A stretch of DNA of 32,000 nucleotides from Thermosulfurimonas dismutans (GCF_001652585.1 NZ_LWLG01000011.1:1-32000); one strand, 5' to 3'. Shown: positions 2,821 to 32,000, counted from the first letter of the stretch. The notes: generated from the letters alone by a model not told the origin. Made by a program: numbers and translations.

Positions 2821-3186
2821 ATGAAAATATTTTGGGACCCCAACGCTCCTTTAGATTTTACCCCGGGCCGGAAGACCGGCAAAGTAGAAAAAAACTTTGA
2901 GGTCTATTTCAGGGAGGCCCTCTCCCGGAACGAGGCCTCGCGGGAGGACTTCTCCCAAGCCGTGGCCCTGGTGGAGGAGATGCTCCCTCTCCTAGATCGC
3001 CTCTCCGAGGATCCAATCTCTCGTAGTCAGGCCGAAACCCTGGCGGACATCCTCTCTGAGAGGGCCAGACAGCTTGACGAGCTTCTTTCCCATCTTCCCG
3101 AAGGTCCCCTGCGTAGGACCCTTTCCGAGGCCGCCATCCTCTTTGGGGTAGAGGCCGAAAAACTACGGCGCGGATTTTATATCTAA
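2821..3186 (+). CDS. Hypothetical small helical protein (121 aa)
   Basis: The ATG at 2821 is preceded by AAGGAG at 2809-2814. The composition is protein-like, but I recognise no domain. The 3' end overlaps the addB-like stop. The track start at 2764 would overlap the divergent BON gene start. Confidence 0.5.
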   Translation: MKIFWDPNAPLDFTPGRKTGKVEKNFEVYFREALSRNEASREDFSQAVALVEEMLPLLDRLSEDPISRSQAETLADILSERARQLDELLSHLPEGPLRRTLSEAAILFGVEAEKLRRGFYI

Positions 3187-6008
3187 ACCGGTTTCCGCCC
3201 CGGGCAGGCGTAGAGATAGTCGCAGAAGCGGCAGCCGGGCGGTTTCTCCGGAATAAAGAAGGCCTCCGCAGATAACATGTGCTCTATAAGAAGAGTCAGA
3301 AGCCTGGGGAAGACTTCTCCCCGCAGGCGTAAGAGATCCTCCTCGGAAAGCCCCCCGTCTCTGGTATTAAAGGGCGCCCGGTAAAGGAGCGGTTTGAAGA
3401 GCTCCCGGTCCTTTCCGCTGGCAAGCTGGACATAGGCCGCGTCCTGGGCCTCCTCCTTGAGGAAGAGATAGAGAAGGAGCTGGAGATCCGGCATCCTCTC
3501 TCTCAGGGCCGAGAGTCCCTCCAGGGTAGGCGGAGCCGAGAAATCCTCCTCGAGCAACTCCCGCAGACGCTTCAGGCTAAGCGACCGGACGCTGCCCCCG
3601 GTCTTGTAGTCCAGGATCACCAGACCACTCTCGAATTCGTCCACCCGGTCAAGCCGTCCGTAGAATTTGAGGCCCAGGGAGGGGTGTTCTCTCCTTACCG
3701 ACCTCTCCAAAGAGACGATCCTGAAGACCGGTATCTCCCTCAGGACCTCTAGATAGCGCTTGAGGCGGAACTCCGCGGTTCGGGTAATGAAAAATCTCCT
3801 TTCCGGACCGAGCCTCCGGGAAAGGACACTTCTTTCAAACTCTTCGCGGAAAAGCGCAAGCAGCCGTTCGGGGTCATTGTCCCGACGAGGTTCATAGTGG
3901 CGTCCCTCAAAAGGCTTGAAGTATCTCTCGAGCACGGCGTGTATGACGGTTCCGAGCTCAGCGGCGTCGTAGTCCGTAATCCGGGCCGGGGGTTTAAGTT
4001 CAAGGAGGTACCGGAAATAGAACCGCGCCGGGCACTCCAGATAGGTCTCTAAGAAGGTAGCACTGATCTCCCTTTCGAAAAGGATGCGCTCTATCTCCTC
4101 TCGCTCAGCCCGTCCCCGCGGAATCGCGGTCTCCGGGCTCCGGGGTTTTAAGAACAGGGGAAGATGCTTCAAAAGTTCGTCGTTTTCCGTAAAGAGCCTC
4201 TTCCGCCGGCGTTCCTCTTCCCAGAGAAGGGCCTCCACATAACGGCTTCTCACCTGAGGAGGGCGTCTTGCGGAGGTCTCCGTAACCGAGAGATAGAAAA
4301 TATCCACCTCCCGGGCGGCCGCAATTAGACGCCGGAAGTGATATCTCTCCAAGGCCTCCTGCCTCGAACGGGGTGGAAGCGAAAGGGCCGGCCTCACCCC
4401 CTCTGGAAGAAGGGGGTTTATCTCCTCCGGAGAAGGGAGCGACCCCTCATTGGCGTCAAGCACGATGACCTTCCTGAAGGAAAGCAGACGGGTCTCAAGG
4501 AGCCCCATCACCTGAAGACCACAGAGGGGATCTCCCTCAAAGGGGGCCTTGAGGCCTGAGAGTAGTTCTCGGAAAAGTCTGAAAAGGGTCTCGGGTTTGA
4601 GGGGTTCGTCCGCGAAGGAAGAGGCCGCAAAGAGGGGCAGGATCTCGGACTCTAGGGCGTAAAGAAAGTGCCGGGCCAGGATGTCCTGGTTATCGCGGGC
4701 CTCGCGCAACCTTTCCCTCCGGGGCGCAACTACCCTCTCAAGGATCTCAAAGAGGACCTCCGCAAACCTCCGGGGGGTGTTCACCACTGCAAGCGGCCGA
4801 ATAAATCGCCGGTGGAAATCCTCAAGGGCCTGGTCTCCACCGGCAAGCTCCTCGATCTCGAAAAGGGACAGGTAGGGACTTCCGTGTTCCCTGAGGAGGG
4901 CCTCAAGGGACTTTTCCCGGGCCTTTAGGGCCACAAAGCTTCCCCGGATGTAAGGGTGTTTTAGCAGGGCCAGATAGGTCATCACGGGATAGCGTTCCCC
5001 GAGGCGCTTTTCGTGAAGTTCCATAAGGAGCAGAAGGAAGGAGGCCGGAAGAGAGCGTTTTACCGGGTATCCCAGGGTGATGTTCACAGGAAGACTCTCG
5101 GGAAGACTGTATAGGAGCGGCAGGAGGTGACCGGCCACGGGAAGGAGGATCAGGACTTCGTCCGGGGTGAGGATCTTTTTAGGAAGGAGATCGGCCGCCG
5201 CCCGGCATTCCTGATGCACATCCGCGGCTACCCGGAAGGTTATCCGCGGGCGCCTGACCGGAAATTTCTTAAAAGGCACAGGGTCAAGTCCGAGACGAGA
5301 AAGGGTCTCCTCCAGAAAATCCGGAATGTCCTCGGGGCGGCCTTCGAAAAAGACCTCGGCTCCGGCGGAGATAAATGCCCGGAAGACCTCCGCCTCGGCA
5401 CGGGATAGGGCCGCAAACCCGCAAAGATAACAGGGCCCATCCGGGGAGAAGCATTCCTCAATCCTTTCCGCAAGGAGCCGCAACCTTTCGGCCGGAGTGG
5501 TAAAGCCCTTCTCTCTCAGGAGCTTCCGGTAGCGGGTGGCCACTTCCGAAAGATGGGCGAGAAGATTTCGGGCCTCCTGTGGAAGGTCCTCCGGGGGATA
5601 GAGCAGATCTTTTACCGGGACCATTTCCTTCTCGAATTCCTCCAGGACCTCCGAAAGCCTGATCCCCCAGGGCAAAAAACGGTCAAAACTTTCGGCTGTC
5701 CGGGAAAAAACCGGGGAATCCCTCACGATGGCATAGAGCCACCAGGCCCTCTCGGCCGGAGGGATCACCGGCCGGGGGTCGAGTCTTACCGCAAGCTCGT
5801 TCACCAGATCCGAGAAGGCGTAGATCCGCGGAGAAAGGAAGGGACCTCTCAGGTTATGGTAGAGATAATACCTCAGGTAGAGGGCCGCCCGGCGGGTAGG
5901 AAGGACTACGGTCACCCGGGCGAGTTCACGGCCGTGTCTGGCGGCGAGCTCCCCAGCCAGGGTCTTCAAAAAACCGGCCTCAGGCGGAATGAAATAGGCG
6001 GGCCTCAA
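3183..6008 (-). CDS. addB: AddB-like helicase-nuclease subunit: inactivated SF1-helicase-like N-terminus plus a C-terminal PD-(D/E)XK nuclease with an Fe-S Cys cluster
   Basis: 941 aa. The N-terminus (FIPPEAGFLKTLAGELA...VVLPTRRAALYLR) lacks a Walker A motif, as in proteobacterial-type AddB. The C-terminus has ECPARFYFRYLL, GTVIHAVLE, GRLDRVD, ILDYKTG and CRFCDYLYAC, giving a 1+3 Cys pattern. The TTG start has GGGAGG 7 nt upstream and forms a TTGA overlap with the upstream ORF. Confidence 0.85.
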   Translation of the reverse strand: MRPAYFIPPEAGFLKTLAGELAARHGRELARVTVVLPTRRAALYLRYYLYHNLRGPFLSPRIYAFSDLVNELAVRLDPRPVIPPAERAWWLYAIVRDSPVFSRTAESFDRFLPWGIRLSEVLEEFEKEMVPVKDLLYPPEDLPQEARNLLAHLSEVATRYRKLLREKGFTTPAERLRLLAERIEECFSPDGPCYLCGFAALSRAEAEVFRAFISAGAEVFFEGRPEDIPDFLEETLSRLGLDPVPFKKFPVRRPRITFRVAADVHQECRAAADLLPKKILTPDEVLILLPVAGHLLPLLYSLPESLPVNITLGYPVKRSLPASFLLLLMELHEKRLGERYPVMTYLALLKHPYIRGSFVALKAREKSLEALLREHGSPYLSLFEIEELAGGDQALEDFHRRFIRPLAVVNTPRRFAEVLFEILERVVAPRRERLREARDNQDILARHFLYALESEILPLFAASSFADEPLKPETLFRLFRELLSGLKAPFEGDPLCGLQVMGLLETRLLSFRKVIVLDANEGSLPSPEEINPLLPEGVRPALSLPPRSRQEALERYHFRRLIAAAREVDIFYLSVTETSARRPPQVRSRYVEALLWEEERRRKRLFTENDELLKHLPLFLKPRSPETAIPRGRAEREEIERILFEREISATFLETYLECPARFYFRYLLELKPPARITDYDAAELGTVIHAVLERYFKPFEGRHYEPRRDNDPERLLALFREEFERSVLSRRLGPERRFFITRTAEFRLKRYLEVLREIPVFRIVSLERSVRREHPSLGLKFYGRLDRVDEFESGLVILDYKTGGSVRSLSLKRLRELLEEDFSAPPTLEGLSALRERMPDLQLLLYLFLKEEAQDAAYVQLASGKDRELFKPLLYRAPFNTRDGGLSEEDLLRLRGEVFPRLLTLLIEHMLSAEAFFIPEKPPGCRFCDYLYACPGRKPV

Positions 6009-6523
6009 AGAGGAACCTCCCTGAGTTCAGGTGGTCTCAAATAAAAAAGATAGCCCCTTACCGGAGATCCCCATATCGCGGAAAGTCCCCTGAGGTACTC
6101 CCGCACCTGTTTTTCATGTTCGGTGCTCGGGCCGGAGAGTTTGTACTCCAACACCACCGGACCCTCGGGCAAAAACACGATACGGTCCGGCCGGTGCCCC
6201 TCGGGACCGTTTTCTCCCACGGTCACGAAGGGGTGTTCGCGGAGGTCCCTCAAACCCGGGCTAAAGAAGGGCCTTGCCGCCGGGAGGCTGAGAGCGGAAA
6301 AAAGAATCTCCGTAAGCTCCCTGAAATAGGTCTCCCTCTCCGTCAAAGGTTCGGGGTAGAGGGCAAGGGCCCGCCTTACGGCCTCCTCGACCTCCTCGCG
6401 AACTCCACTGAAGGCCGGAAGAAAATAAAGGGCCAGATGGGCCATCTCCCCCAGGACTCGCTCCCGATCCATCTCCCCGAGCACCTTAAGCGCCCGTCTT
6501 TGCTGAAAAATACGAACCCTCAT
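6005..6523 (-). CDS. Stand-alone PD-(D/E)XK nuclease domain protein (equivalent to the AddA/RecB C-terminal nuclease domain)
   Basis: 172 aa. Motifs are LGEMAHLALYFL (GxxxHxxL-like), HRPDRIVFL (the D motif) and VVLEYKLSG (E-x-K). It forms an ATGA overlap with the helicase stop and a TTGA overlap with the addB-like start. The Shine-Dalgarno sequence is weak (GGAAA). Confidence 0.75.
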   Translation of the reverse strand: MRVRIFQQRRALKVLGEMDRERVLGEMAHLALYFLPAFSGVREEVEEAVRRALALYPEPLTERETYFRELTEILFSALSLPAARPFFSPGLRDLREHPFVTVGENGPEGHRPDRIVFLPEGPVVLEYKLSGPSTEHEKQVREYLRGLSAIWGSPVRGYLFYLRPPELREVPL

Positions 6524-9000
6524 TTTCCAAGAATATCTCTTACCACGGATCCAACGGTGTAGTATCTGGTCTTTTCTGGGAGGAAGATATAAAGTCTCTC
6601 CCGCGGGCGGGTAAAGGCCACATAGAGGAGATTAAGGCTCTCGAGCACCTCCCGCCCTTTCTCCCTCAGTTTGGCCCGGGAGACCTCCTCGGAGGACTCC
6701 CTACGGGCCCGAATGAGCCCTCTTTCCGTAACCACGAGTTCGTCCTTCCCCTTGGGCCCCCAGGTAAGGTAAGGCACCACCACCGCGGAAAACTCAAGTC
6801 CTTTGGCGGCGTGGATGGTAAAAACCCTCACAGCCTGAAGCTCGCGCGGCAGCCCCACTTTCTCCTCAAGCCCCTCTTCCTCCCAGAGGGCAAGAAAATC
6901 CGAAAGACTCAGGGCCTCCTCTTCATATCTCAGGACCGCGGTGAGAAACCTCGAAAGATAAAGATCTTCCTCTGGGAAACGCTCCCTGAGGCGGAACCTC
7001 TCCACGATGGCCTGTACCAACTCATAGAGGGATAAACGCTCGAGGTCGCGGGAAAGCCCATCAAGAAGGTCAACCAGGGCTTCGGCCCTCGCCTCGAGAT
7101 AGGCCTTGAGACCGGGGGCCCCATTTCTCTTCTCCGCAAGATAGGCCTCTAGGAGCCCCTCACCTCTTTCTGGAAGGGGGCTTTTCAGAAAACCGGCCAG
7201 GGCGGTCTCGTCCTCAGGGTAATTGAGGTACTGGAGGAGGGATAGGATGCCCTTTACGAGGGGAGAATTTTCGAGCCTCAGGGCCCGATCGGTTACCGCC
7301 GGGATCCCCCTTTCGAAAAGGAAAGTGGCAATCTCTTCGGCCTCCCGGTTTTCCCTTACCAGGATCGCCACCGTCCCCCCGGTCCTCACATAGGTCTCGT
7401 AAAGTCCGGGGATAAGCTCTGCAAGCTTCTCAAAGATCCCCTCCCGGAACCTTTCCCGGTCCTCATCCGAAGGCACGGTAACGATCTCCACCTCCCCCTC
7501 CGGGGCTTCGGAAAGGATCTCCTGCTCAAGATCGGAGAAGGCCGTTTCCAACTTTGAGGCCAACTCCTCGGAGACCTCGCAGTCTTTCGGAGGTTTTCTC
7601 CCGTGCAGGAGTTTGCGCACCACCTCGTGGGCCCGCTCGACTAAAGTGGAGAAGAAACGGTTGTTGAACGCAACGATCCTTTGGGCCGAACGGAAATTGT
7701 GTGGCAGGCTTTCGGAAAAAACCTCCCCCGGAAGTCCTTGCGGAACCTCAAAAAAGAGAGCCGGATCCCCACCCCGCCACATGTATATGGCCTGTTTCAC
7801 ATCCCCCACATAAAGAAGGCTACCGCCTGAGGAGATAACCTCTTCCACCAGGGGATAAAGGGCCTGCCACTGAAGGCGATTGGTATCCTGGAACTCGTCA
7901 ATCAGGAAATGCCTGATACGGGTTCCGATCTTAAGGTAAATGAGGGGCGGGGGATTCTCGGAAAGAAACCTCACCAGCAATTCCGTCCAGCTTCCCACCT
8001 GAAGAAGCCCCTCCTCCTCTCTCAGAGAGAGGAGCTCTCCGGAAAGCTCCCGGAAGAGCCTCTCATAGGGAGCCACCTCCGCCCGCGCTTTAGCAGTAAG
8101 GTAGATCGAAAGTTTTCCTTTGAGTTTCTGATAATCTCCATCCAAGGCCTCGGCGAGTTTGCGGCAGCGGGCCTTAAGCACCTCTCTGAAGGAATCTTTT
8201 TTAAAGACCTTGCTCCAGTAGTAACGGGGGGGATCAAGGATATAGGTCTCCCAGCTAGGATAGGCGAACTCTCCCCTTTCGGAAAGGACCCTTTCACAAA
8301 GGGTCCTTCCAAGCCTCCGCAGTTCCTCCTCGAGTGCGGAGAGGTCCTCGCCTGGATCCCGGGCTTCTAGAAGCCTGCCCCCTGCCCTCTGGCTTAGAAG
8401 GCCGTAGATCTCCCGCATCCGCCGACGAAAGTGTTTCTCGGGGTTGAAACCTCCCCGGCCCTCGATCTCAAGAAAGGTGAAAAGGGCCCGGGCGAAGACC
8501 TCCTCAAGTTTCGGATCCTCCCGGAGCCTTAGAAGCAATCTATCGAAGGCTCTATTCAAAAAGAGGTCTTCCCGAATCTCAGCCGAAAGCTCGGGACGAA
8601 GGCCGAGTTCTATGGCGAGACCCCGGATGAGAGTGAAGATGAGGCTATCAATGGTCCGCACCTGAAACACATGATAGTGGTTGAAGATGGTCTCAAGCCA
8701 GGCGGCGGCCTCCTCGGGAAACAGCCCGGTCTCGGCCGATAGTTTCTTTCCTAGATCCGTGAAAAGGGCGATGTTCTTGAGAAAGTAGATGATGCGTTCC
8801 CGCATCTCGGCCGCGGCCTGATTGGTGAAGGTCAAGGCCACGATCCCGGAAAGTCCTGCCTCCGAAGGGCACCCCTGAGATTTAAGAAGTCTCAGATAGT
8901 GGAGGGCCAGACGATAGGTCTTTCCGGCCCCGGCCGAGGCCGAAACCCGGAAGATCCCCCGGGGCTCAGGATAAAGTGGAAGCTCTAACAGCTCGGGCAT
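6520..9000 (-). CDS. addA: UvrD/Rep-family SF1 helicase, AddA-like, lacking the nuclease domain
   Basis: Walker A is SASAGAGKTYRL, motif II is HFLIDEFQDTN, followed by YVGDVKQAIYMWRGG, NFRS, TIHAAKGLEF and motif VI YVAFTRPRERLYIF. Only about 20 aa follow motif VI. I prefer the ATG at 9000 (TAAAAT 8 nt upstream) to the track's GTG at 9018. Confidence 0.88.
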   Translation of the reverse strand: MPELLELPLYPEPRGIFRVSASAGAGKTYRLALHYLRLLKSQGCPSEAGLSGIVALTFTNQAAAEMRERIIYFLKNIALFTDLGKKLSAETGLFPEEAAAWLETIFNHYHVFQVRTIDSLIFTLIRGLAIELGLRPELSAEIREDLFLNRAFDRLLLRLREDPKLEEVFARALFTFLEIEGRGGFNPEKHFRRRMREIYGLLSQRAGGRLLEARDPGEDLSALEEELRRLGRTLCERVLSERGEFAYPSWETYILDPPRYYWSKVFKKDSFREVLKARCRKLAEALDGDYQKLKGKLSIYLTAKARAEVAPYERLFRELSGELLSLREEEGLLQVGSWTELLVRFLSENPPPLIYLKIGTRIRHFLIDEFQDTNRLQWQALYPLVEEVISSGGSLLYVGDVKQAIYMWRGGDPALFFEVPQGLPGEVFSESLPHNFRSAQRIVAFNNRFFSTLVERAHEVVRKLLHGRKPPKDCEVSEELASKLETAFSDLEQEILSEAPEGEVEIVTVPSDEDRERFREGIFEKLAELIPGLYETYVRTGGTVAILVRENREAEEIATFLFERGIPAVTDRALRLENSPLVKGILSLLQYLNYPEDETALAGFLKSPLPERGEGLLEAYLAEKRNGAPGLKAYLEARAEALVDLLDGLSRDLERLSLYELVQAIVERFRLRERFPEEDLYLSRFLTAVLRYEEEALSLSDFLALWEEEGLEEKVGLPRELQAVRVFTIHAAKGLEFSAVVVPYLTWGPKGKDELVVTERGLIRARRESSEEVSRAKLREKGREVLESLNLLYVAFTRPRERLYIFLPEKTRYYTVGSVVRDILGK

Positions 9001-9036
9001 CGATCCCAATTTTAACACCTAGGGATCTTTTCATAA
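9001..9036 (-). promoter_or_regulatory. Candidate promoter TTATGA-16-TAAAAT followed by 8 nt and the helicase ATG
   Basis: On the minus strand TTATGA is at 9036..9031, TAAAAT is at 9014..9009 and the ATG is at 9000. No convincing Shine-Dalgarno sequence is present. Confidence 0.3.
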
Positions 9037-10384: not shown

Positions 10385-10888
10385 ATGAGCAAGTCTGAGG
10401 AAAAACTGCAAGAGGCCTTTGCCGGGGAATCACAGGCAAACCGCAGGTATTTGGCCTTTGCGAAGAAAGCCGAGGAAGAGGGCTTTCCCGGCATTGCCAA
10501 GATGTTCCGGGCAGCGGCCGAGGCCGAGACCATCCACGCCCTGAACCACCTCCGGGCCATGGGGGGGATCAAGTCCACCGCCGAAAATGTGCAGGCCGCC
10601 ATACATGGTGAAACCTACGAATTCAAGACCATGTATCCGGAAATGATCGAGATCGCGGAGAAGGAGGGTAACCAAGAGGCCAAGCGGAGCTTCTTCTACG
10701 CCAACGAGGCCGAAAAGATGCACGCGGCCATGTTTGAACGGGCCCTCATGTACATTAAGGAAGGAAAAGACGCTCCCGTGGATCAGATTTATGTCTGCCC
10801 AGTTTGCGGTTACACCGTGGAGGGCTCAAGACCGGACAAATGCAAGGTTTGCTGGGCTGAAGGTTCCAAGTTTATCGAAATCAAGTAA
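10385..10888 (+). CDS. rbr: Rubrerythrin
   Basis: 167 aa. The N-terminal diiron four-helix domain reads EAFAGESQANRRYLAFAKKAEEEG...AEAETIHA. The C-terminal rubredoxin-like motif is CPVCG...CKVC. Confidence 0.95.
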   Translation: MSKSEEKLQEAFAGESQANRRYLAFAKKAEEEGFPGIAKMFRAAAEAETIHALNHLRAMGGIKSTAENVQAAIHGETYEFKTMYPEMIEIAEKEGNQEAKRSFFYANEAEKMHAAMFERALMYIKEGKDAPVDQIYVCPVCGYTVEGSRPDKCKVCWAEGSKFIEIK

Positions 10889-21098: not shown

Positions 21099-21273
21099 AA
21101 AGTTAACGACATCACCAGAGGTTCCGAAGCTTTTGGTTTTAAAGCTTCATTCATTCAACCAAACAGGTTAAAAATTTAGAATTGGGAGTGCTACCGTCCT
21201 TCTGTTGAGGACTGAGGTTTGGGAACGAAGCCCCACAAGGAGAGCTAAGAAGAATTGCACAGTTAAGAACAAG

Positions 21274-21302
21274 TTGACGGGAAAAGATTTTTATAGTAGC
21301 GA
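21274..21302 (+). promoter_or_regulatory. Candidate promoter TTGACG-17-TAGCGA followed by 7 nt and the DUF1015 ATG
   Basis: TTGACG is at 21274-21279, TAGCGA at 21297-21302 and the ATG at 21310. A better hexamer, TATAGT at 21292-21297, lies only 12 nt from the -35. No Shine-Dalgarno sequence is present. Confidence 0.3.
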
Positions 21303-21309
21303 GTTTGCC

Positions 21310-22587
21310 ATGCCGGAATTCAAACCCTTTTATGGTTGGCGTTATCATCCGGACCGGGTGGACATTTCCCGGGTAGTGGCTCCGCCCTATGATGTAGTCA
21401 ATGAAGATGAAACCCGTCGTTATTTAAGACAAGATCCTCACAACATCTTCCATCTTGAGCTTGGAGAAGAGCTCCCCGGGGATCACGAGAATGAAAACCG
21501 CTACCTGCGGGCCAAAAGGCATCTCGAAAACTGGATAAAGGAAGGCGTGCTCGTCCGGGAGGACCGTCCGGCCTTTTATCTCTATCGGCTACGTTTCACC
21601 TATCGAGGGCAAACTTTCACCCGCACAGGATTCATCGGGCTGGTACGTCTTAGTCCCTTCTCCGAGGGTCGAATTCTTCCGCATGAAAAGACCTTTTCCA
21701 AGGTAACCGAAGCCCGACTGCAACTCCTCAGGGCCACCGGAGCCCAATTCAGTCAGGTCTTCGCCCTTTATCGGGATCCAGAGAGAAAAACCCTAAAACT
21801 TTCCCTTCCTGAAGAGCCCCTCTATCGAGTAGAGGAATCGCCGGGAATCGCACACGAATTCTACGTGATCGAAGACCCGGAGGTCCAGGAAACTCTTTCC
21901 CTCCAGCTATCGGAAAAAGTCCTTTACATCGCGGACGGACACCATCGATACACTACAGCCCTTAAATATGCCGAGGAAATGGAGGCCAAATTCAAACCGG
22001 ATGGCCCTCGCTGTTTCCACTACCTCATGATGTATCTCTGTCCCTTTGAGGATCCCGGTCTCCTAGTTTTACCCACGCACCGCCTCCTTAAGATTGACAT
22101 CCCGGAAGAAACTGTAAAGAACAAGCTCAAAGACCTTGCGGAAGTCAAAGAAGAGAATCCCTCAGTCCTAGAGAACCCCGGGAGGCCCTCTAAGGGCGAG
22201 CTTCTATGGCTGGCTCCAGAAGGAGTCCTTTCGATAGGGATTCGGCCGGAGATTCTTTCGACCTGGGAGAAGGAAACCGGTCTTCCGGAAAGCGAGCTTC
22301 CTGCGGCCTGGTGCGCCCGCATCATCGAAATTCTCTGTGGAAAGTCCGAAAAGACCCTCAAGGAAGAAGGCCTCCTTCGATACACTCCCTGGCTTTCCGA
22401 AATCAAAAAAGATCTTTCGGCCGGTAATCGGGCCCTCATACTTCCTGAAACGCCGATTTCGGTCCTAGAGAAGGTAGCCACCTCCGGCAAGGTCATGCCT
22501 CACAAGTCCACTTATTTCTATCCCAAAATACTTACCGGCTTCGTCATTTTCAAAATCAATCCCGAAGCCGTCCCTCCTTGTCCGTGA
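21310..22587 (+). CDS. DUF1015 domain-containing protein
   Basis: I trimmed the start to the ATG at 21310. The N-terminus reads MPEFKPFYGWRYHPDRVDISRVVAPPYDVV, and LYIADGHHRY follows later. Both match my memory of DUF1015 conserved blocks. Confidence 0.85.
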   Translation: MPEFKPFYGWRYHPDRVDISRVVAPPYDVVNEDETRRYLRQDPHNIFHLELGEELPGDHENENRYLRAKRHLENWIKEGVLVREDRPAFYLYRLRFTYRGQTFTRTGFIGLVRLSPFSEGRILPHEKTFSKVTEARLQLLRATGAQFSQVFALYRDPERKTLKLSLPEEPLYRVEESPGIAHEFYVIEDPEVQETLSLQLSEKVLYIADGHHRYTTALKYAEEMEAKFKPDGPRCFHYLMMYLCPFEDPGLLVLPTHRLLKIDIPEETVKNKLKDLAEVKEENPSVLENPGRPSKGELLWLAPEGVLSIGIRPEILSTWEKETGLPESELPAAWCARIIEILCGKSEKTLKEEGLLRYTPWLSEIKKDLSAGNRALILPETPISVLEKVATSGKVMPHKSTYFYPKILTGFVIFKINPEAVPPCP

Positions 22588-23096
22588 AAACCGCTGAAGA
22601 CCTCTTCCAAGAAAGCTTAACCGCGACCTTAAGCCTCTTTAAAAGGATAAAGCCCAAACTCGAAAGGAACGAAGATTTTAAAGCTCTTTTAGCAGAGCTC
22701 ATGAAAGGCCTTGAGGAAAGCGAAAGGGCTTATCGAGAAACCGGAGCCTACCTCGTATGCCGAGAATGCGCTCGCCTTTCCCGCCATACTTGTTGCGGAC
22801 ACGACATGGAACTCGAAGTCAGCCGTGAACTCCTCATCGTAAACTTATTCTTAAAAGCAAACCTCCCACAAAAACGAAGTTTTCCTGAAGCCTGTTTTTT
22901 TCTAGGTCCTCAAGGATGTACTTTACTCGCCCGCCCCATCCTATGCCGAAACTTTTTCTGCCCCTGGTTCAAAGAAAGACTTCCAATCGAAAAACTTAAA
23001 TATATCCAAATAAGACAAGAAAAAGAGATTATATCCCTTTTTAAGCTCATAAACCACCTCAAAACTCTTCTTTTTAGGGTTGACCACTCTTATTAA
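22578..23096 (+). CDS. YkgJ/UPF0153-like cysteine-cluster (putative Fe-S or Zn) protein
   Basis: 172 aa with 8 Cys. CRECARLSRHTCCG is a variant of CxxCGxCC. ACFFLGPQGCTLLARPILCRNFFC matches the family's C.FL..G.C.IY..RP..CR.F pattern. The TTG (22578) or GTG (22584) start overlaps the DUF1015 stop. Confidence 0.65.
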   Translation: MSVKTAEDLFQESLTATLSLFKRIKPKLERNEDFKALLAELMKGLEESERAYRETGAYLVCRECARLSRHTCCGHDMELEVSRELLIVNLFLKANLPQKRSFPEACFFLGPQGCTLLARPILCRNFFCPWFKERLPIEKLKYIQIRQEKEIISLFKLINHLKTLLFRVDHSY

Positions 23097-23138
23097 AAAT
23101 CCTAAAATTTCAAAAGTTATTGCTGGTGGAGGTGGTTT

Positions 23139-24467
23139 ATGTACCCTATTTGGGAAGTACCATATTTTTCGTCAGCTTTAATAATCGGTTTGATCGCTTC
23201 TTTTCATATTCTGCCTTCGCATCTGGCAGTGGGAGCCTTCTGGTTTAACGTGTATATAGAACGCAAGGCCTATAGGGAAAAACAGCTAGAACTCTTAGAT
23301 TTCATCAAGCGCTATACCCTCTTGATCCTAATTTTTTGTTTCGTTTTCGGATCCCTATCTGGAGTGGGTATATGGTATTCGGCTACCGTAGCCAGCCCCC
23401 GCGGCATCTCGGCTCTCATTCACAACTATGTTTGGGGTTGGGCCACGGAATGGGTCTTTTTTCTGATCGAAGTGGCCACCATCTATGTCTATTATTACAC
23501 CTTCGGCAAAGTGGATGAGAAAACCCATCTTCGCATAGGCTACCTTTATGCTTTGGCCGCTTGGATCAGCATGATCATTATCACCGGTATCCTGGCCTTC
23601 ATGCTTACCCCAGGGAAATGGTTAGAAACCGGAAGGTTCTTTGACGGCTTCTTCAATTCTACCTACTGGCCTCAACTTTTTGCGCGCACCTTCCTCATGT
23701 TCGGGATCGCGGCCGTTTACGCCTTGGTAGTGGCAACCACGCTTCAAAACAAGGCTGTACAGTACAAGATCACCAGGTTAGCGGGCCTTTGGGGAATCCT
23801 GGGATTCCTTATAGGAGGCCTCATGACCTATTGGTATCTAAAAAAACTGCCCGAGCCCGCACAAGATTTCCTTTTTGGAGGCACCTTGCCTTATCTCAAA
23901 ACGCTACTTTACGTTTCGGGGATTAGCTGGGTCCTGGCTCTCCTTTACTTCCTCCTTTGTGGAGCCCTGTTTCCTCGAGCCAACACTCTGGCCGGAAGCC
24001 TCTTGTTGATGTTGATCCTTTTCTTCGGCATCTTTGCCGGAGAGGGCCTCCGAGAAGGCCTCCGACGGCCTTATATCGTAAACTTTTTTATGTATAGCCA
24101 TCAGGTAGTGGCCGCAGACCTTCCGGCCAAAGGCATACAGGCCGAAACGGAGCTCCTTTCCGAGGCAGGTTATCTTTCTAGGTTAGGATATCTTCCTCCT
24201 GAATTAAGAAAAATCACTCCTGAAAATCAGGTAGAAATAGGACGGATTCTAGTAATACACCAGTGTGCCAACTGCCACGCTCTCAGTGCCAAAGGTCTGC
24301 GTAGCCTACCGAAACTCCTCTCTGGAATGGGTATGACAGATCCTGAAGATTTAGCAGGCTTCCTGGAAGGACTCGATGGTTATCCCTATATGCCGCCATT
24401 TGTGGGTACGGAAGAGGAGCGGTTGGCGGCTGGGGCCTATCTTTCCACTTTGGTGGAAAATAAGTAA
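23139..24467 (+). CDS. Cytochrome bd subunit-I-like membrane protein (about 8 TM) fused to a C-terminal class I mono-haem cytochrome c domain
   Basis: The Shine-Dalgarno sequence is GGAGGTGG. TM1 (LIASFHILPSHLAVG) resembles the CydA motif MYHFLFVPLTLG. TM3 (ATEWVFFLIEVAT) resembles the CydA motif IEGLMAFFLEST. The haem c site CANCH is at nt 24264-24278, with a downstream PYMPPF as a likely Met ligand. Confidence 0.8.
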   Translation: MYPIWEVPYFSSALIIGLIASFHILPSHLAVGAFWFNVYIERKAYREKQLELLDFIKRYTLLILIFCFVFGSLSGVGIWYSATVASPRGISALIHNYVWGWATEWVFFLIEVATIYVYYYTFGKVDEKTHLRIGYLYALAAWISMIIITGILAFMLTPGKWLETGRFFDGFFNSTYWPQLFARTFLMFGIAAVYALVVATTLQNKAVQYKITRLAGLWGILGFLIGGLMTYWYLKKLPEPAQDFLFGGTLPYLKTLLYVSGISWVLALLYFLLCGALFPRANTLAGSLLLMLILFFGIFAGEGLREGLRRPYIVNFFMYSHQVVAADLPAKGIQAETELLSEAGYLSRLGYLPPELRKITPENQVEIGRILVIHQCANCHALSAKGLRSLPKLLSGMGMTDPEDLAGFLEGLDGYPYMPPFVGTEEERLAAGAYLSTLVENK

Positions 24468-24479
24468 AGGAGGAAGTCT

Positions 24480-25688
24480 ATGGACAGCTTTGCCAATTAC
24501 ATAAATACCTTAAGAGATGTAAGCGGATTACCTTTCTATCCCTGGCTTTTTGACATTCTATTAGTCTTCACCTTCACATGCCACATTCTCTTGGTAAACC
24601 TCGTCCTCGGTGGCTCGATCGTTCTCCTCTGGGGAAAACTTTCCGGGAATCCTTATGGAGGAAGACTTTCCAGATCTTTGTCTCGGGTCTTACCCATCTC
24701 TCTCTCCTGGGCTATCGTCTTAGGGGTAGCCCCTCTCCTTTTTATTCAGGTCATATATGACCCCTTCTGGTACTTTTCGAGTGTCATTTCTGCTTGGTGG
24801 ACCCTGGCCTTTCTGGCTTTGATCGCTCTGGCCTTTTCCCTCTTCTATGTTTACTACCTCCGGGGAGGGTACGAGGGACAGGGAAATCCTCTTTGGGTGT
24901 TCCTCGCACTGGCGGCTCTATCCACTGTCGCGGTCATTATTCACGCCCTATCACTTCAAGCTGTCCATCCCGAGAGGTGGTCTGAGTGGGTAGTGAAGGG
25001 AGGGCGGGTGAATTTCAGCGGAAGTGGCCTTTATGCCTTTGAATTGCCGCGTATTTTACACTTCATTCTAGCCTCTGTAGCCATAATCGGCATATTCCTA
25101 ATGCTTTATGCCCGTTATTTCAGGGCCCGACCAGATTATCCCTCCGAATATCTGGCGTGGGTAGAACGGACAGGCGCCAGAACGGCTTTCGTTTTCTCTC
25201 TGCTGCAGGCCGGCGCGGGCATTTGGTGGTTCCTTACCCTTCCTAGGACCTTTCATTTTTACATTCATCCCCTCTTCCTCATAGGAGCTGGTTTTGGCAT
25301 AACCCTTATCGTGGTCTTGGCTCTAGCACAGGCCAGACCCTCGGCCTATACCTGGCCCGTTACCATCCTGGCCTTTCTTACGGTCTTTTTCATGAGTTAT
25401 GCTCGAGAAGCCTTGCGTATGAAATATCTTCATCGTGCGGGTTACTCCTTTGCCGATTATCCCGTCCACCCCAGCTGGTCCTCCACTGCTCTTTTCCTTC
25501 TCACGTTCGTTATGGGGCTTGTAATCCTTTTCTATGTAGGGTTGGTGGCCTTTAGGGCCGGACGGGGGCATAAGGAAGTAGGAAGTCATGGACTCGGTAA
25601 ATTGGCCGTTACCCTTAGTTGTCTCTGGATCGGAATTATGGTGGTTATAGGACTTGTCATCTCTTTCAAGAACGGCGCCCTGCCATAG
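24480..25688 (+). CDS. Polytopic membrane protein (about 9-10 TM), probable partner subunit of the preceding protein
   Basis: The Shine-Dalgarno AGGAGGA begins 12 nt upstream of the ATG. TM1 (VFTFTCHILLVNLVLGG) again carries a His in a CydA-TM1-like context. I recognise no soluble domain. Confidence 0.78.
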   Translation: MDSFANYINTLRDVSGLPFYPWLFDILLVFTFTCHILLVNLVLGGSIVLLWGKLSGNPYGGRLSRSLSRVLPISLSWAIVLGVAPLLFIQVIYDPFWYFSSVISAWWTLAFLALIALAFSLFYVYYLRGGYEGQGNPLWVFLALAALSTVAVIIHALSLQAVHPERWSEWVVKGGRVNFSGSGLYAFELPRILHFILASVAIIGIFLMLYARYFRARPDYPSEYLAWVERTGARTAFVFSLLQAGAGIWWFLTLPRTFHFYIHPLFLIGAGFGITLIVVLALAQARPSAYTWPVTILAFLTVFFMSYAREALRMKYLHRAGYSFADYPVHPSWSSTALFLLTFVMGLVILFYVGLVAFRAGRGHKEVGSHGLGKLAVTLSCLWIGIMVVIGLVISFKNGALP

Positions 25689-29874: not shown

Positions 29875-30027
29875 TTAAGAACACCTTTTCCGACTACATT
29901 TGGATGAAGCCTTAGCCTCACAGCCCTCCTTAACCATGGTTCCGGACTCCCCACACTCGGGACACTTTCTAGGTTTACACCGGCTCTCTTTGGTAGCCCC
30001 ACACTTGTCGCACTTCCAAACCGCCAT
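29875..30027 (-). CDS. Small (50 aa) Cys-rich zinc-ribbon/rubredoxin-like protein
   Basis: Absent from the track because it is under 60 aa. My translation is MAVWKCDKCGATKESRCKPRKCPECGESGTMVKEGCEAKASSKCSRKRCS. It has paired CxxC knuckles, and the ATG is preceded by AAAGGGGG with a 6-nt spacer. It reads in a different frame from the track ORF 29808..30002. Confidence 0.6.
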   Translation of the reverse strand: MAVWKCDKCGATKESRCKPRKCPECGESGTMVKEGCEAKASSKCSRKRCS

Positions 30028-30052
30028 CGCTAACCCCCTTTATTTTTGTCTT

Positions 30053-30082
30053 TAAGTTAATATACTTTCTCTACTTTGTCAA
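30053..30082 (-). promoter_or_regulatory. Candidate promoter TTGACA-18-TAACTT for the zinc-ribbon gene
   Basis: On the minus strand TTGACA is at 30082..30077. TAACTT is at 30058..30053, and an alternative TATATTAA lies closer to the -35. The leader is about 20 nt and contains the Shine-Dalgarno sequence. Confidence 0.3.
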
Positions 30083-30132
30083 GACTTTAGGAAGGCCCCC
30101 AAAAGCCTTTTATTAAATGTCCGAAATGGATA

Positions 30133-30160
30133 TTGACAGGTTTTAGTAACAAGTTAGCCT
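30133..30160 (+). promoter_or_regulatory. Candidate promoter TTGACA-16-TAGCCT followed by 9 nt and the GGDEF-gene ATG
   Basis: A perfect -35 is at 30133-30138, TAGCCT (TAnnnT) at 30155-30160 and the ATG at 30170. No Shine-Dalgarno sequence is present. Confidence 0.4.
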
Positions 30161-30169
30161 TTCTAGGCC

Positions 30170-31672
30170 ATGAATACCCTTGAAAAGTTGACCAAAGAAG
30201 GAGAAATAGAATTACCCTCTCTTCCCAGTGTAGTTTTAAAGTTACTCGAAGCCGTTAAAAACGACTCTTTCGAGGCCCTAGCTCATCTTATCAAATTTGA
30301 TCCGGCTCTAGCAACCAAGGTCCTCTCAGTAGCCAATTCTCCTCTTTTTTCGAGGGGAAAAAAAATTGAAAGTCTAGAGACTGCTATTTCTTTGCTAGGC
30401 ACTGAAATGATCAAGAATATTGCCCTCTCCTTTATTCTTGTCAAAAACTTCCAACGCCAAGAAAAAAACGAATTTGACTTCGAAAATTTTTGGAAAAGGG
30501 CTATCACAGCCGCCGTCTCTGCCGAGCTGATGGCCCAAAAACTAAGGCTTGCGGGAGACAAAATTTACCTTTCTGCTCTTCTTATGGATATTGGAATAGT
30601 GATTATGTTCTTATGTCGGCCAGATGATTACTTAAAGGTCTTTGATGAAAAAAGAGCAGAGAACCTGTCTACCGTAGAAGCAGAACGGAACATTTTCGGT
30701 TTTGACCATCAACAGGTAGGAGCCGAAATAACCTCTGCCTGGGGATTACCTGAGTATTTGCGAGATATGATACTATATCATCACTCTCCCGAAAAAGCCC
30801 CTTTAGAGATCCAAAAAGAGATCCAATTAATATCCTTCGCTGACAAAATGGCTGGTATTTATTTTGCTTTTCACGCCTTGGATAAGTATACCTATATTCT
30901 ACATCATGCCCAAAAATATCTGGCTTTTTCTCCTGAGGAAACAGAGAGCTTAGTAGATGAAGTGGCAGAAAAATCTCAAGAACTCCTTGAGATATTCGAT
31001 CTACCTGTAAGAGAACTGAAACCTTATTCCCAAATATTAGAAGAGGCAAACAGAGAACTCCAAAAACTAACTTTGAATTATGCGCAGCTTCTACAAAAAC
31101 TTAAAGAAGAAAAAGCGCGGGCCGAGGCCTTGGCCCAGAAGCTTAAAGAAGCCAACCAAAAGCTCATGGAAATGGCTATAAAGGATGGGCTTACAGGAGT
31201 TTTTAATCGGAGGTACTTCCAGGAAAGGCTCGCCGAAGAAGTTAATCGATTCAAACGATACAATGGAAGCCTTTCGGTAATAATTCTAGATATTGATCAT
31301 TTCAAAAAAATCAATGATACTTATGGACATCTCTTTGGAGACGAGGTCCTAAAAAAAATGGGGGCTATTTTAAAGACCGAAACTAGAGAGTGTGACCTCG
31401 TGGCCCGTTATGGAGGTGAGGAATTTGTCATTCTTCTTCCTTCAACGGATCTAAAAGGAGCTACCAGATTAGCCGAACGTCTACGTCAAAAAGTAGAAGA
31501 AACAGAATTTTCGTATGGAAACCAAAAGGTGAAAGTGACTATAAGCCTAGGGGTGGCTTCTATCTCTTCCCCTAGTGAAAAGACGGAAAAAGAACTTCTT
31601 TCGGTAGCAGACAAAGCCCTTTATTATTCTAAACATAAGGGCCGCAATCGGGTCACAGCGGTAAAGATTTAA
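30170..31672 (+). CDS. HDOD domain - coiled coil - GGDEF diguanylate cyclase
   Basis: The N-terminal HDOD domain reads LPSLPSVVLKLLEAV...FDPALATKVLSVANSPLF...LLG. The C-terminal GGDEF domain has the active-site RYGGEEF and an RxxD I-site (RECD) 5 residues upstream. Confidence 0.9.
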   Translation: MNTLEKLTKEGEIELPSLPSVVLKLLEAVKNDSFEALAHLIKFDPALATKVLSVANSPLFSRGKKIESLETAISLLGTEMIKNIALSFILVKNFQRQEKNEFDFENFWKRAITAAVSAELMAQKLRLAGDKIYLSALLMDIGIVIMFLCRPDDYLKVFDEKRAENLSTVEAERNIFGFDHQQVGAEITSAWGLPEYLRDMILYHHSPEKAPLEIQKEIQLISFADKMAGIYFAFHALDKYTYILHHAQKYLAFSPEETESLVDEVAEKSQELLEIFDLPVRELKPYSQILEEANRELQKLTLNYAQLLQKLKEEKARAEALAQKLKEANQKLMEMAIKDGLTGVFNRRYFQERLAEEVNRFKRYNGSLSVIILDIDHFKKINDTYGHLFGDEVLKKMGAILKTETRECDLVARYGGEEFVILLPSTDLKGATRLAERLRQKVEETEFSYGNQKVKVTISLGVASISSPSEKTEKELLSVADKALYYSKHKGRNRVTAVKI

Positions 31673-31675
31673 GAC

Positions 31676-32000
31676 ATGCAAGTTCCTAAAGGGTTTTCCT
31701 TTAATGCAGTCGAGGCAGGAATCAAGTACCAGGGACGGCCGGATGTAGGACTGATCTTTTCTGAAAAGCCCTCTTTTTGGAGCGGAGTCTTCACCAAAAA
31801 TGACGTTAAAGCTGCCCCTGTAATTTTAGGTCTTGAACGCCTCCGAAAACAATCGAAGATTCGGGCCATCTTGGTGAATAGCGGTTGCGCTAACGCCTGT
31901 ACCGGGGAGGCCGGCCTACGGGACGCCGAAATCGTTCTAACCGAATTGGCAAAGAACTTAAATCTTTCACCAGAGGAAATCCTCCCGGCCTCGACCGGGG
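31676..32000 (+). CDS. argJ: Bifunctional glutamate N-acetyltransferase/amino-acid acetyltransferase ArgJ (N-terminal part; runs off the window end)
   Basis: My translation is MQVPKGFSFNAVEAGIKYQGRPDVGLIFSEKPSFWSGVFTKNDVKAAPVILGLERL...ILVNSGCANACTGEAG. The VPKGF...AGIK and NSGxANACTG blocks are typical of ArgJ. Confidence 0.9.
   Translation, partial: MQVPKGFSFNAVEAGIKYQGRPDVGLIFSEKPSFWSGVFTKNDVKAAPVILGLERLRKQSKIRAILVNSGCANACTGEAGLRDAEIVLTELAKNLNLSPEEILPASTG

Follow-up and report, generated by a model that had tools for sequence, protein, structure and literature searches.

The locus and its deposited annotation

The window analysed here is a stretch of 32,000 nucleotides (nt) from Thermosulfurimonas dismutans (GCF_001652585.1, NZ_LWLG01000011.1:1-32000), a sulfur-disproportionating thermophile and strict anaerobe of deep-sea vent origin (PMC4911364). 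It contains two adjacent genes on the plus strand, 12 nt apart, the first encoding a CydA homologue fused to a cytochrome c domain (protein 1, or subunit a) and the second its paralogous partner (protein 2, or subunit b). Together they have the OR-C1a/OR-C1b architecture of the cytochrome bd superfamily, an assignment made on eight defining features; the homology, fold, conserved residues, topology and gene pairing of the two were observed in this analysis. The listed open reading frames (ORFs) have the coordinates and lengths of an initial annotation made from the sequence, and the motifs it had pointed out are all present, namely SFHILPSHLAVG (H23), ATEWVFFLIE (E104, E111) and PYMPPF (M418) in protein 1 and FTCHILLVNLVLGG (H35) in protein 2, with CANCH (residues 376-380) exactly where it had been placed (Table 1).

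In the homologue search, each protein was 100% identical to a protein of T. dismutans, the counterpart of protein 2 being a "hypothetical protein" of the same species. The deposited protein 1 ('Cytochrome c family protein') has 405 amino acids (aa) and begins at an internal GTG (V38), which leaves out the first transmembrane helix (TM1) with the invariant His23 and His28 (nt 23139-23252). As read from the sequence, the supported start is the ATG at 23139, given the N-terminus MYP(I/F)WE common to all protein 1 homologues and the ribosome-binding site GGAGGTGG. The public names of the pair include "cytochrome c family protein", "cytochrome ubiquinol oxidase subunit I" and "hypothetical protein", and the pair goes unmentioned in the T. 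dismutans genome papers.

Table 1. Coordinates of the two genes, their domains, candidate cofactor residues and upstream signals, counted from the first letter of the window.
Feature	Position	Strand	Basis
Promoter-like site, TTGACC-17 nt-TAAAAT	23080..23108	+	Consensus scan, 10/12 matches; pattern match only, no sign of function
Ribosome-binding site, GGAGGTGG, ending 3 nt 5' of ATG	23128..23135	+	Read from sequence
Gene 1, OR-C1a-type CydA homologue fused to cytochrome c, 442 aa	23139..24467	+	ORF listing, PF01654, AlphaFold2/Foldseek
Gene 1 membrane core, residues 1-309, eight TM helices, no Q-loop	23139..24065	+	AlphaFold2 helices, loop length, PF01654
His23 codon, equivalent of CydA H19 (axial ligand of active-site haem)	23205..23207	+	89/89 homologues; hhalign to E. 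coli H19
Glu104-Glu111 (EWVFFLIE), equivalents of CydA proton-channel E99/E107	23448..23471	+	Both 89/89
E302-G-L-R-E306-G-L-R-R-P-Y, periplasmic end of TM8	24042..24074	+	E302, R305, E306, R309, P311 invariant
C-terminal class I cytochrome c domain, about residues 345-442	24171..24464	+	PF13442, Foldseek, weak profile matches
CANCH, predicted haem c attachment motif (C376, C379, H380)	24264..24278	+	Invariant 89/89
Met418 in PYMPPF, probable sixth haem c ligand	24390..24392	+	Kept 88/89; aligned to NorC M-P motif
Gene 2, OR-C1b-type paralogous partner, 402 aa, about ten TM helices, no CxxCH	24480..25688	+	ORF listing
His35 of gene 2, aligned to gene 1 H23 and CydA H19	24582..24584	+	Invariant 113/113 representatives
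His194 of gene 2, periplasmic start of TM5	25059..25061	+	95/113; aligned to CydA H186
Met305 of gene 2, TM8, candidate second axial ligand of haem b	25392..25394	+	Coupled to His194

Membrane core, cytochrome c domain and paralogous partner

The membrane core of protein 1 was matched by the Pfam family PF01654 (Cyt_bd_oxida_I) with E=6.2e-8 and 32.1 bits, above the curated cut-off of 26.2, over residues 16-219, which correspond to the first half of the profile (positions 6-219 of 418). The AlphaFold2 model, made with 89 homologues, has a predicted local distance difference test score (pLDDT) of 85.8 and a predicted template-modelling score (pTM) of 0.83, and consists of eight TM helices, a number also obtained from hydropathy analysis, followed by a small helical domain. 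When this model was compared with the PDB using Foldseek, the top 18 matches were all bd oxidase chains, CydA (probability 1.00) before CydB, the best being 7oy2_C (E=1.3e-5) and 5doq_A (template-modelling score, TM-score, 0.59/0.60). The TM6-TM7 loop has about 19 residues, leaving no Q-loop. The CydA-like four-helix core, the roughly eight TM segments and the absence of a Q-loop, all recognised by eye in the initial annotation, are therefore borne out by the profile, the model and the loop length.

Conservation was followed in the same 89 homologues, with identities down to about 52%, where H23, H28, H95, E104, E111, Y118, H130, E302, R305, E306, R309, C376, C379 and H380 are invariant, as is P311, and where the column of S144 always holds Ser or Thr. 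The genes are genuine and maintained by selection. The suspected correspondence of the His and Glu residues to the haem-site residues of CydA was recovered: hhalign paired H23 with H19, E111 with E. coli E107 and H130 with H126, and E104 was paired with E99 through the six-residue spacing (qOR3-type) and the published positions of OR-C1a proteins (E105/E112 in Table S6 of bioRxiv 10.1101/2021.01.16.426971). Ala182 falls in the column of CydA H186, and no TM7 start bearing a Met was seen. When either family was aligned by hhalign with the single sequence of E. coli CydA or CydB the result was not significant, the CydA alignments being in register, and a Pfam scan of fragments or consensus sequences (TM6-8 of protein 1; the N-terminus and TM7-9 of protein 2) gave no bd match. 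The sole stretch of the protein 1 model with a pLDDT below 50 is the periplasmic TM2-TM3 loop with the invariant His95 (LIHNYVWGW; residues 90-96, nt 23406-23426).

At the end of TM8, the conserved motif that starts with E302 is a possible counterpart of W441-F-V-A-E445-Y-G-R-Q-P-W of CydA, in which E445 is a ligand of haem b595. If E306 does correspond to E445, protein 1 would comprise TM1-8 of CydA with a cytochrome c domain in place of TM9, and the second ligand of the active-site haems would have been kept, contrary to the published table.

The C-terminal domain was matched by PF13442 over residues 364-435 (E=6.2e-5) with 23.7 bits, just under the 27-bit cut-off, and gave weak profile matches to NorC, CcoP and cytochrome c6; by Foldseek it is close to cytochrome c6, with target TM-scores of 0.64-0.69. 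With the conserved CxxCH motif and Met418, this agrees with the class I cytochrome c domain first read from the sequence. Across the family, protein 1 has 9.4 Lys plus Arg residues on the side opposite the N-terminus and 4.0 on the N-terminal side, a positive-inside bias that places both the N-terminus and the C-terminus outside, and hence the haem c domain in the periplasm, as had been expected from an even number of TM helices. This predicted side matches what the topology of CydA and the attachment of haem c both require. T. dismutans makes other c-type cytochromes (PMC4911364), so that the maturation machinery is present.

Protein 2 was assigned to no Pfam or NCBIfam family in profile scans, and PF01654 was matched by protein 1 alone (32.1 bits). 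Its AlphaFold2 model (pLDDT 90.8) shows some ten TM helices for this clade instead of eight. The PDB chain most similar to the model is CydA from a mycobacterial bd oxidase of the qOR2 type (9r2g_A, E=1.3e-4, TM-score 0.63/0.67); further CydA chains come next, then NrfD-type subunits of alternative complex III and, after them, CydB chains. With such a mixed list, the fold alone cannot tell an A-type from a B-type subunit, and the sequence can. A profile was built from 113 diverse representatives, taken from 1670 relatives among 1.84 billion cluster representatives, and hhalign aligned it with the protein 1 family over 257 columns spanning TM1-TM8 (96% probability, E=1.1e-9); His35 pairs with His23, and R309-E310-x-x-R313 pairs with R305-E306-x-x-R309. 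The C-terminal halves of both families alone gave E=5e-9, and with E. coli CydB nothing aligned, nor was there a match to PF02322. Because of this family-level alignment and the lack of any with CydB, protein 2 is considered a diverged duplicate of the CydA-like subunit, in line with the early suspicion of a divergent CydA-like protein and not a CydB. The window has no classical CydB, as had been claimed: protein 2 has no Pfam match, and tblastn with E. coli CydA and CydB found nothing. A comparison of alignment A6 with alignment A3 in hhalign (E=2e-62) was discarded as an artefact of P0342, an 807-aa sequence in which both subunits are fused, and was rerun without it.

The TM3 of protein 2 reads QVIYDPFWY and has no Glu pair, that is, no equivalents of E99/E107. 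Its His194, missed in the initial annotation, aligns with CydA H186, the His ligand of haem b558, although weakly (hhalign E=0.002). Among the 113 representatives, His194 and Met305 are both present in 95 and both replaced by hydrophobic residues in 18, and none has a single one of them (Fisher p=3e-21, uncorrected for phylogeny). The losses occurred in at least two separate groups, the columns were confirmed by flanking anchor motifs, and the matching columns of protein 1 hold Ala182 and Glu302. This pattern suggests that His194 and Met305 are the axial pair of a low-spin haem b in subunit b. That the partner binds haem b is thus suggested because the TM1 His is invariant and the His/Met pair is always kept or lost together.

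Relation to known bd-type systems, distribution and gene neighbourhood

The bd superfamily was split into the qOR, OR-C and OR-N families by Murali, Gennis and Hemp in 2021 (bioRxiv 10.1101/2021.01.16.426971), who described OR-C1a as encoded alongside OR-C1b. Their Table S6 gives for the OR-C1a reference eight TM helices and the residues H24, E105, E112, S145, H131, Y119 and Y121, with Phe at the position of H186 and with M393 and E445 absent; H23, E104, E111, S144, H130, Y118 and Y120 of protein 1 reproduce this pattern with a shift of one residue. The pair of T. dismutans shares with OR-C1 an eight-TM CydA homologue without a quinol site, the six-residue Glu spacing, a periplasmic CxxCH tail, an adjacent paralogous b subunit and the occurrence in Desulfobacterota-type anaerobes. 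Since the eight OR-C features are all present, the interpretation in the initial annotation is supported and the complex is of a catalogued kind; its statement that bd-like fusions with c-type haem had been catalogued with no function assigned fits the OR-C family of the same paper. T. dismutans is absent from the published OR-C tables. A literature search found no biochemical study of any OR-C enzyme, and none by the locus tags of the listed OR-C1a genes, and a 2026 structural paper cites OR-C as a phylogenetic class only.

Subunit a is predicted to carry one haem c in this clade, whereas some published proteins of Desulfovibrionia have up to eight. Subunit b lacks a haem c motif and has some ten TM helices, whereas the OR-C1b of the 2021 paper has eight, with one or two CxxCH motifs in the listed members; this is a departure from the description in that paper and not from homology. 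Most members of the wider partner family have about nine TM helices, and a cytochrome c domain was found in just two of 117. A partner homologue of 588 aa (P0243) has a C-terminal di-haem cytochrome c domain with two CAGCH motifs, like the haem-c-bearing OR-C1b proteins listed in 2021. The sequence P0342 joins an OR-C1a-like half (with CVACH) and an OR-C1b-like half through an Arg-rich stretch that resembles an out-of-frame translation, and is probably a frameshift or gene-call artefact. New in this work are the invariant TM1 His of the partner family, its coupled His/Met pair, the E-x-x-R-R-P-Y motif of protein 1 and the truncation of the deposited annotation.

With the CydAB oxidases (E. coli bd-I and bd-II, Geobacillus thermodenitrificans and mycobacteria), the pair has in common both folds, the TM1 His, the two TM3 Glu, the equivalent of H126 and the outward N-terminus. 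However, its subunit a lacks the Q-loop, H186, M393 and TM9, with electrons predicted to enter via the fused haem c and not from quinol, and the haem-free CydB is replaced by a CydA paralogue in which His and Met residues are conserved. In CydAA' (qOR4a/qOR4b; Caldivirga maquilingensis and other archaea), a CydA duplicate also replaces CydB and may keep a haem ligand, but CydAA' retains the quinol site, oxidises quinol, has no cytochrome c domain and arose by an independent duplication. The OR-N family (Nitrospirota, Chloroflexota) has likewise lost the quinol site, consists of a/b paralogue pairs and has been proposed to use a cytochrome c donor; unlike the pair studied here, OR-N proteins span the membrane with 10-14 TM helices and lack a fused haem c, and N1, N2 and N5a/b are found in operons with redox subunits (PetABD-like), whereas the pair stands alone.

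In a scan of one genome per species, 210 loci encoded a relative, and the best 80 were used for the neighbourhood counts. The partner lies directly downstream on the same strand, with a gap of 7-240 nt, in 78 of the 80; in the other two (L041 and L053), the OR-C1a gene has no partner downstream and unrelated genes come next. No other gene family was present in more than 11 of 81 loci, and the upstream and downstream Pfam censuses gave lineage-specific synteny only. With no further conserved neighbour, the unit consists of two genes and no more. A dedicated donor, a maturation gene or a regulator as a member of the unit was ruled out, none being conserved in the 80 loci. Close homologues are found in Caldimicrobium thiodismutans, Thermosulfuriphilus ammonigenes, Dissulfuribacter thermophilus and Dissulfurispira thermophila, all named sulfur disproportionators.

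Among the lineage-specific neighbours, a canonical cydA-cydB is located directly upstream on the same strand in two Thermodesulfovibrionales loci (L046:5392-7870 and L052:1409-3785; 40% and 36% identical to E. coli). In several Nitrospirota loci (L047:7539-7943, L062:7555-8028, L075, L060, L053 and others), a transcription regulator of the Rrf2 family precedes the pair at a distance of 50-60 nt, and a peroxiredoxin (AhpC/TSA) and a flavodoxin each occur near the pair in two loci. These neighbours hint at oxygen or redox stress.

The flanks of the pair in the window are housekeeping genes, and a second promoter-like site, found by the consensus scan as a pattern match only, is just 3' of gene 2. 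Upstream, a DUF1015 protein is encoded at 21205-22587 (+; E=5e-86), and its Pfam match begins at residue 40 of the ORF, so that the TTG start is probably too far upstream. Its stop is overlapped by a Cys-rich ORF of 172 aa (22578-23096, +), which ends 42 nt before gene 1, contains the motifs CRECARLSRHTCCGH and CFFLGPQGC...CRNFFCPWF, and has no match in Pfam or NCBIfam. This ORF is conserved just beside the pair in Thermosulfurimonas-like loci (L002-L004); the two upstream ORFs were ruled out as operon members, as they are kept in Thermosulfurimonas relatives only.

Elsewhere in the window, a gene at 10385-10888 (+), 12 kb from the pair and unlinked to it, encodes a rubrerythrin, an oxidative-stress protein typically found in anaerobes, here with a rubredoxin-like tail. 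On the minus strand (3183-9018), a 172-aa ORF without a family lies between the genes of a PD-(D/E)XK nuclease (941 aa) and a UvrD-type helicase (832 aa), in an AddAB-like arrangement. In the last stretch (30001-32000), over the gene of an HDOD-GGDEF protein (30170-31672), the G+C content falls from about 0.53 to 0.42.

Proposed function and alternatives

It is proposed, with a probability of about 60%, that the complex is a bd-type O2 reductase which receives its electrons from cytochrome c and serves to scavenge oxygen in anaerobes; the same functional proposal was made by the authors of the OR-C family (bioRxiv 10.1101/2021.01.16.426971). Subunit a would be a CydA cut down to eight helices that keeps the four-helix bundle of the active site, where His23 would bind haem, protons would arrive from the cytoplasm by way of Glu104 and Glu111, and Glu306 would probably be the ligand of a second haem. 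Since subunit a has neither the Q-loop nor the haem b558 ligands, it would not oxidise quinol, and the periplasmic mono-haem cytochrome c domain would take the place of the lost quinol site. Subunit b would be an old duplicate of subunit a standing in the place of CydB, without the glutamates and probably with at least one haem b.

The haem occupancy, the electron path and the substrate inferred here are as follows: a soluble periplasmic cytochrome c would reduce the fused haem c, from which electrons would pass, directly or via the haem b of subunit b, to a high-spin His23/Glu306 haem site in subunit a. There, O2 would be reduced to water with cytoplasmic protons delivered via Glu111 and Glu104, so that oxygen would be consumed and the membrane potential increased. 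In a strict anaerobe of hydrothermal vents, the role of such an enzyme may be to scavenge oxygen at the oxic-anoxic interface.

Several points weigh against O2 scavenging by this complex. The host is a strict anaerobe growing at 74 °C, anaerobes that disproportionate sulfur or reduce sulfate widely have the pair, and just a handful of the 80 loci include neighbours related to oxygen. O2 reduction by OR-C enzymes is itself extrapolated from quinol-oxidising relatives. The alignment of E306 with E445 is collinear and not significant (hhalign E=0.06), and E445 was scored as absent in the published OR-C1a table. A search of PDB sequences with the profile of the protein 1 family found no CydA, just weak cytochrome c matches; this profile is too narrow for such a search, and the fold search was therefore used. 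The alignment of the protein 1 family with CydA reached only E=0.005 in hhalign, the CydA alignment having been built from sequences at least 75% identical to the query with small gain, and outside Pfam the link to solved CydA is weak.

That the same complex acts on another substrate, its cytochrome c-fed bd-type site reducing NO, nitrite, H2O2 or sulfur species, is rather unlikely; this alternative is attractive because the hosts, among them the named sulfur disproportionators with close homologues, are strict anaerobes, several of which ammonify nitrate despite having no NrfA. An example would be a part in the nitrate ammonification of T. dismutans and Dissulfuribacter thermophilus, both without NrfA. 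The Rrf2-type regulators directly upstream in several Nitrospirota loci would suit such a role, as this family includes sensors of nitric oxide (NO). According to the genome papers, T. dismutans and strain F29 have Nap and NrfCDH and no NrfA; however, no nitrogen or sulfur gene is found among the conserved neighbours of the pair, and it is canonical cydAB that adjoins it in two loci. The equivalents of H19, E99 and E107 that are kept in subunit a belong to an O2-reducing site and its proton channel, and Sphingobacterium and Chitinophaga are examples of the aerobes and facultative bacteria in the published OR-C family. A bolder version, in which the complex of the strictly anaerobic sulfur disproportionators is not an O2 reductase and reduces N- or S-oxides at its bd-type site, fed from periplasmic cytochrome c via a haem chain that includes the His/Met haem b of subunit b, for instance as the missing nitrite or NO reductase of the ammonifiers without NrfA, is decidedly improbable; if it were true, OR-C would be a new class of respiratory enzymes on the bd scaffold.

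It is also quite unlikely that the pair is an electron-transfer module connecting the periplasmic cytochrome c pool with menaquinone or another membrane complex, to which the partner would contribute the quinone site. The model of the partner does resemble quinone-interacting subunits of the NrfD type, namely PsrC and, in alternative complex III, ActF and ActC (Foldseek E=3e-3 to 2e-2, TM-scores 0.36-0.46), but its bd subunit matches are better, as given above, and it is a demonstrable paralogue of the CydA-like subunit. Its probable His/Met low-spin haem would suit electron transfer; the invariant proton-channel glutamates of subunit a would be needless in a pure electron wire, and quinol-site residues and a Q-loop are absent. 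That the pair is what remains of a decayed bd oxidase and plays no part in catalysis, for which the loss of the Q-loop, the haem b558 ligands and TM9 and the lack of conserved accessory genes could speak, is already disfavoured and has next to no probability, given dozens of invariant residues in the 89 homologues, every candidate cofactor ligand included, and the intact pairs in 78 of 80 loci across several phyla, with 1670 representatives of the partner family.

To our knowledge, the reduction of O2 to water is limited to three enzyme families, the bd superfamily among them, and the non-quinol branches of this superfamily, OR-C and OR-N, are known from sequence alone. The pair of T. dismutans offers a compact, two-gene, mono-haem-c version of OR-C from a cultured thermophile and is a good candidate for expression and cryo-electron microscopy, with H23, E104, E111 and E306 of subunit a and H35 and H194/M305 of subunit b singled out for mutagenesis. 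In the usual picture of bd oxidases, all the haems are in subunit I and subunit II is a scaffold; if the partner binds haem, this picture would fail for the OR-C branch.

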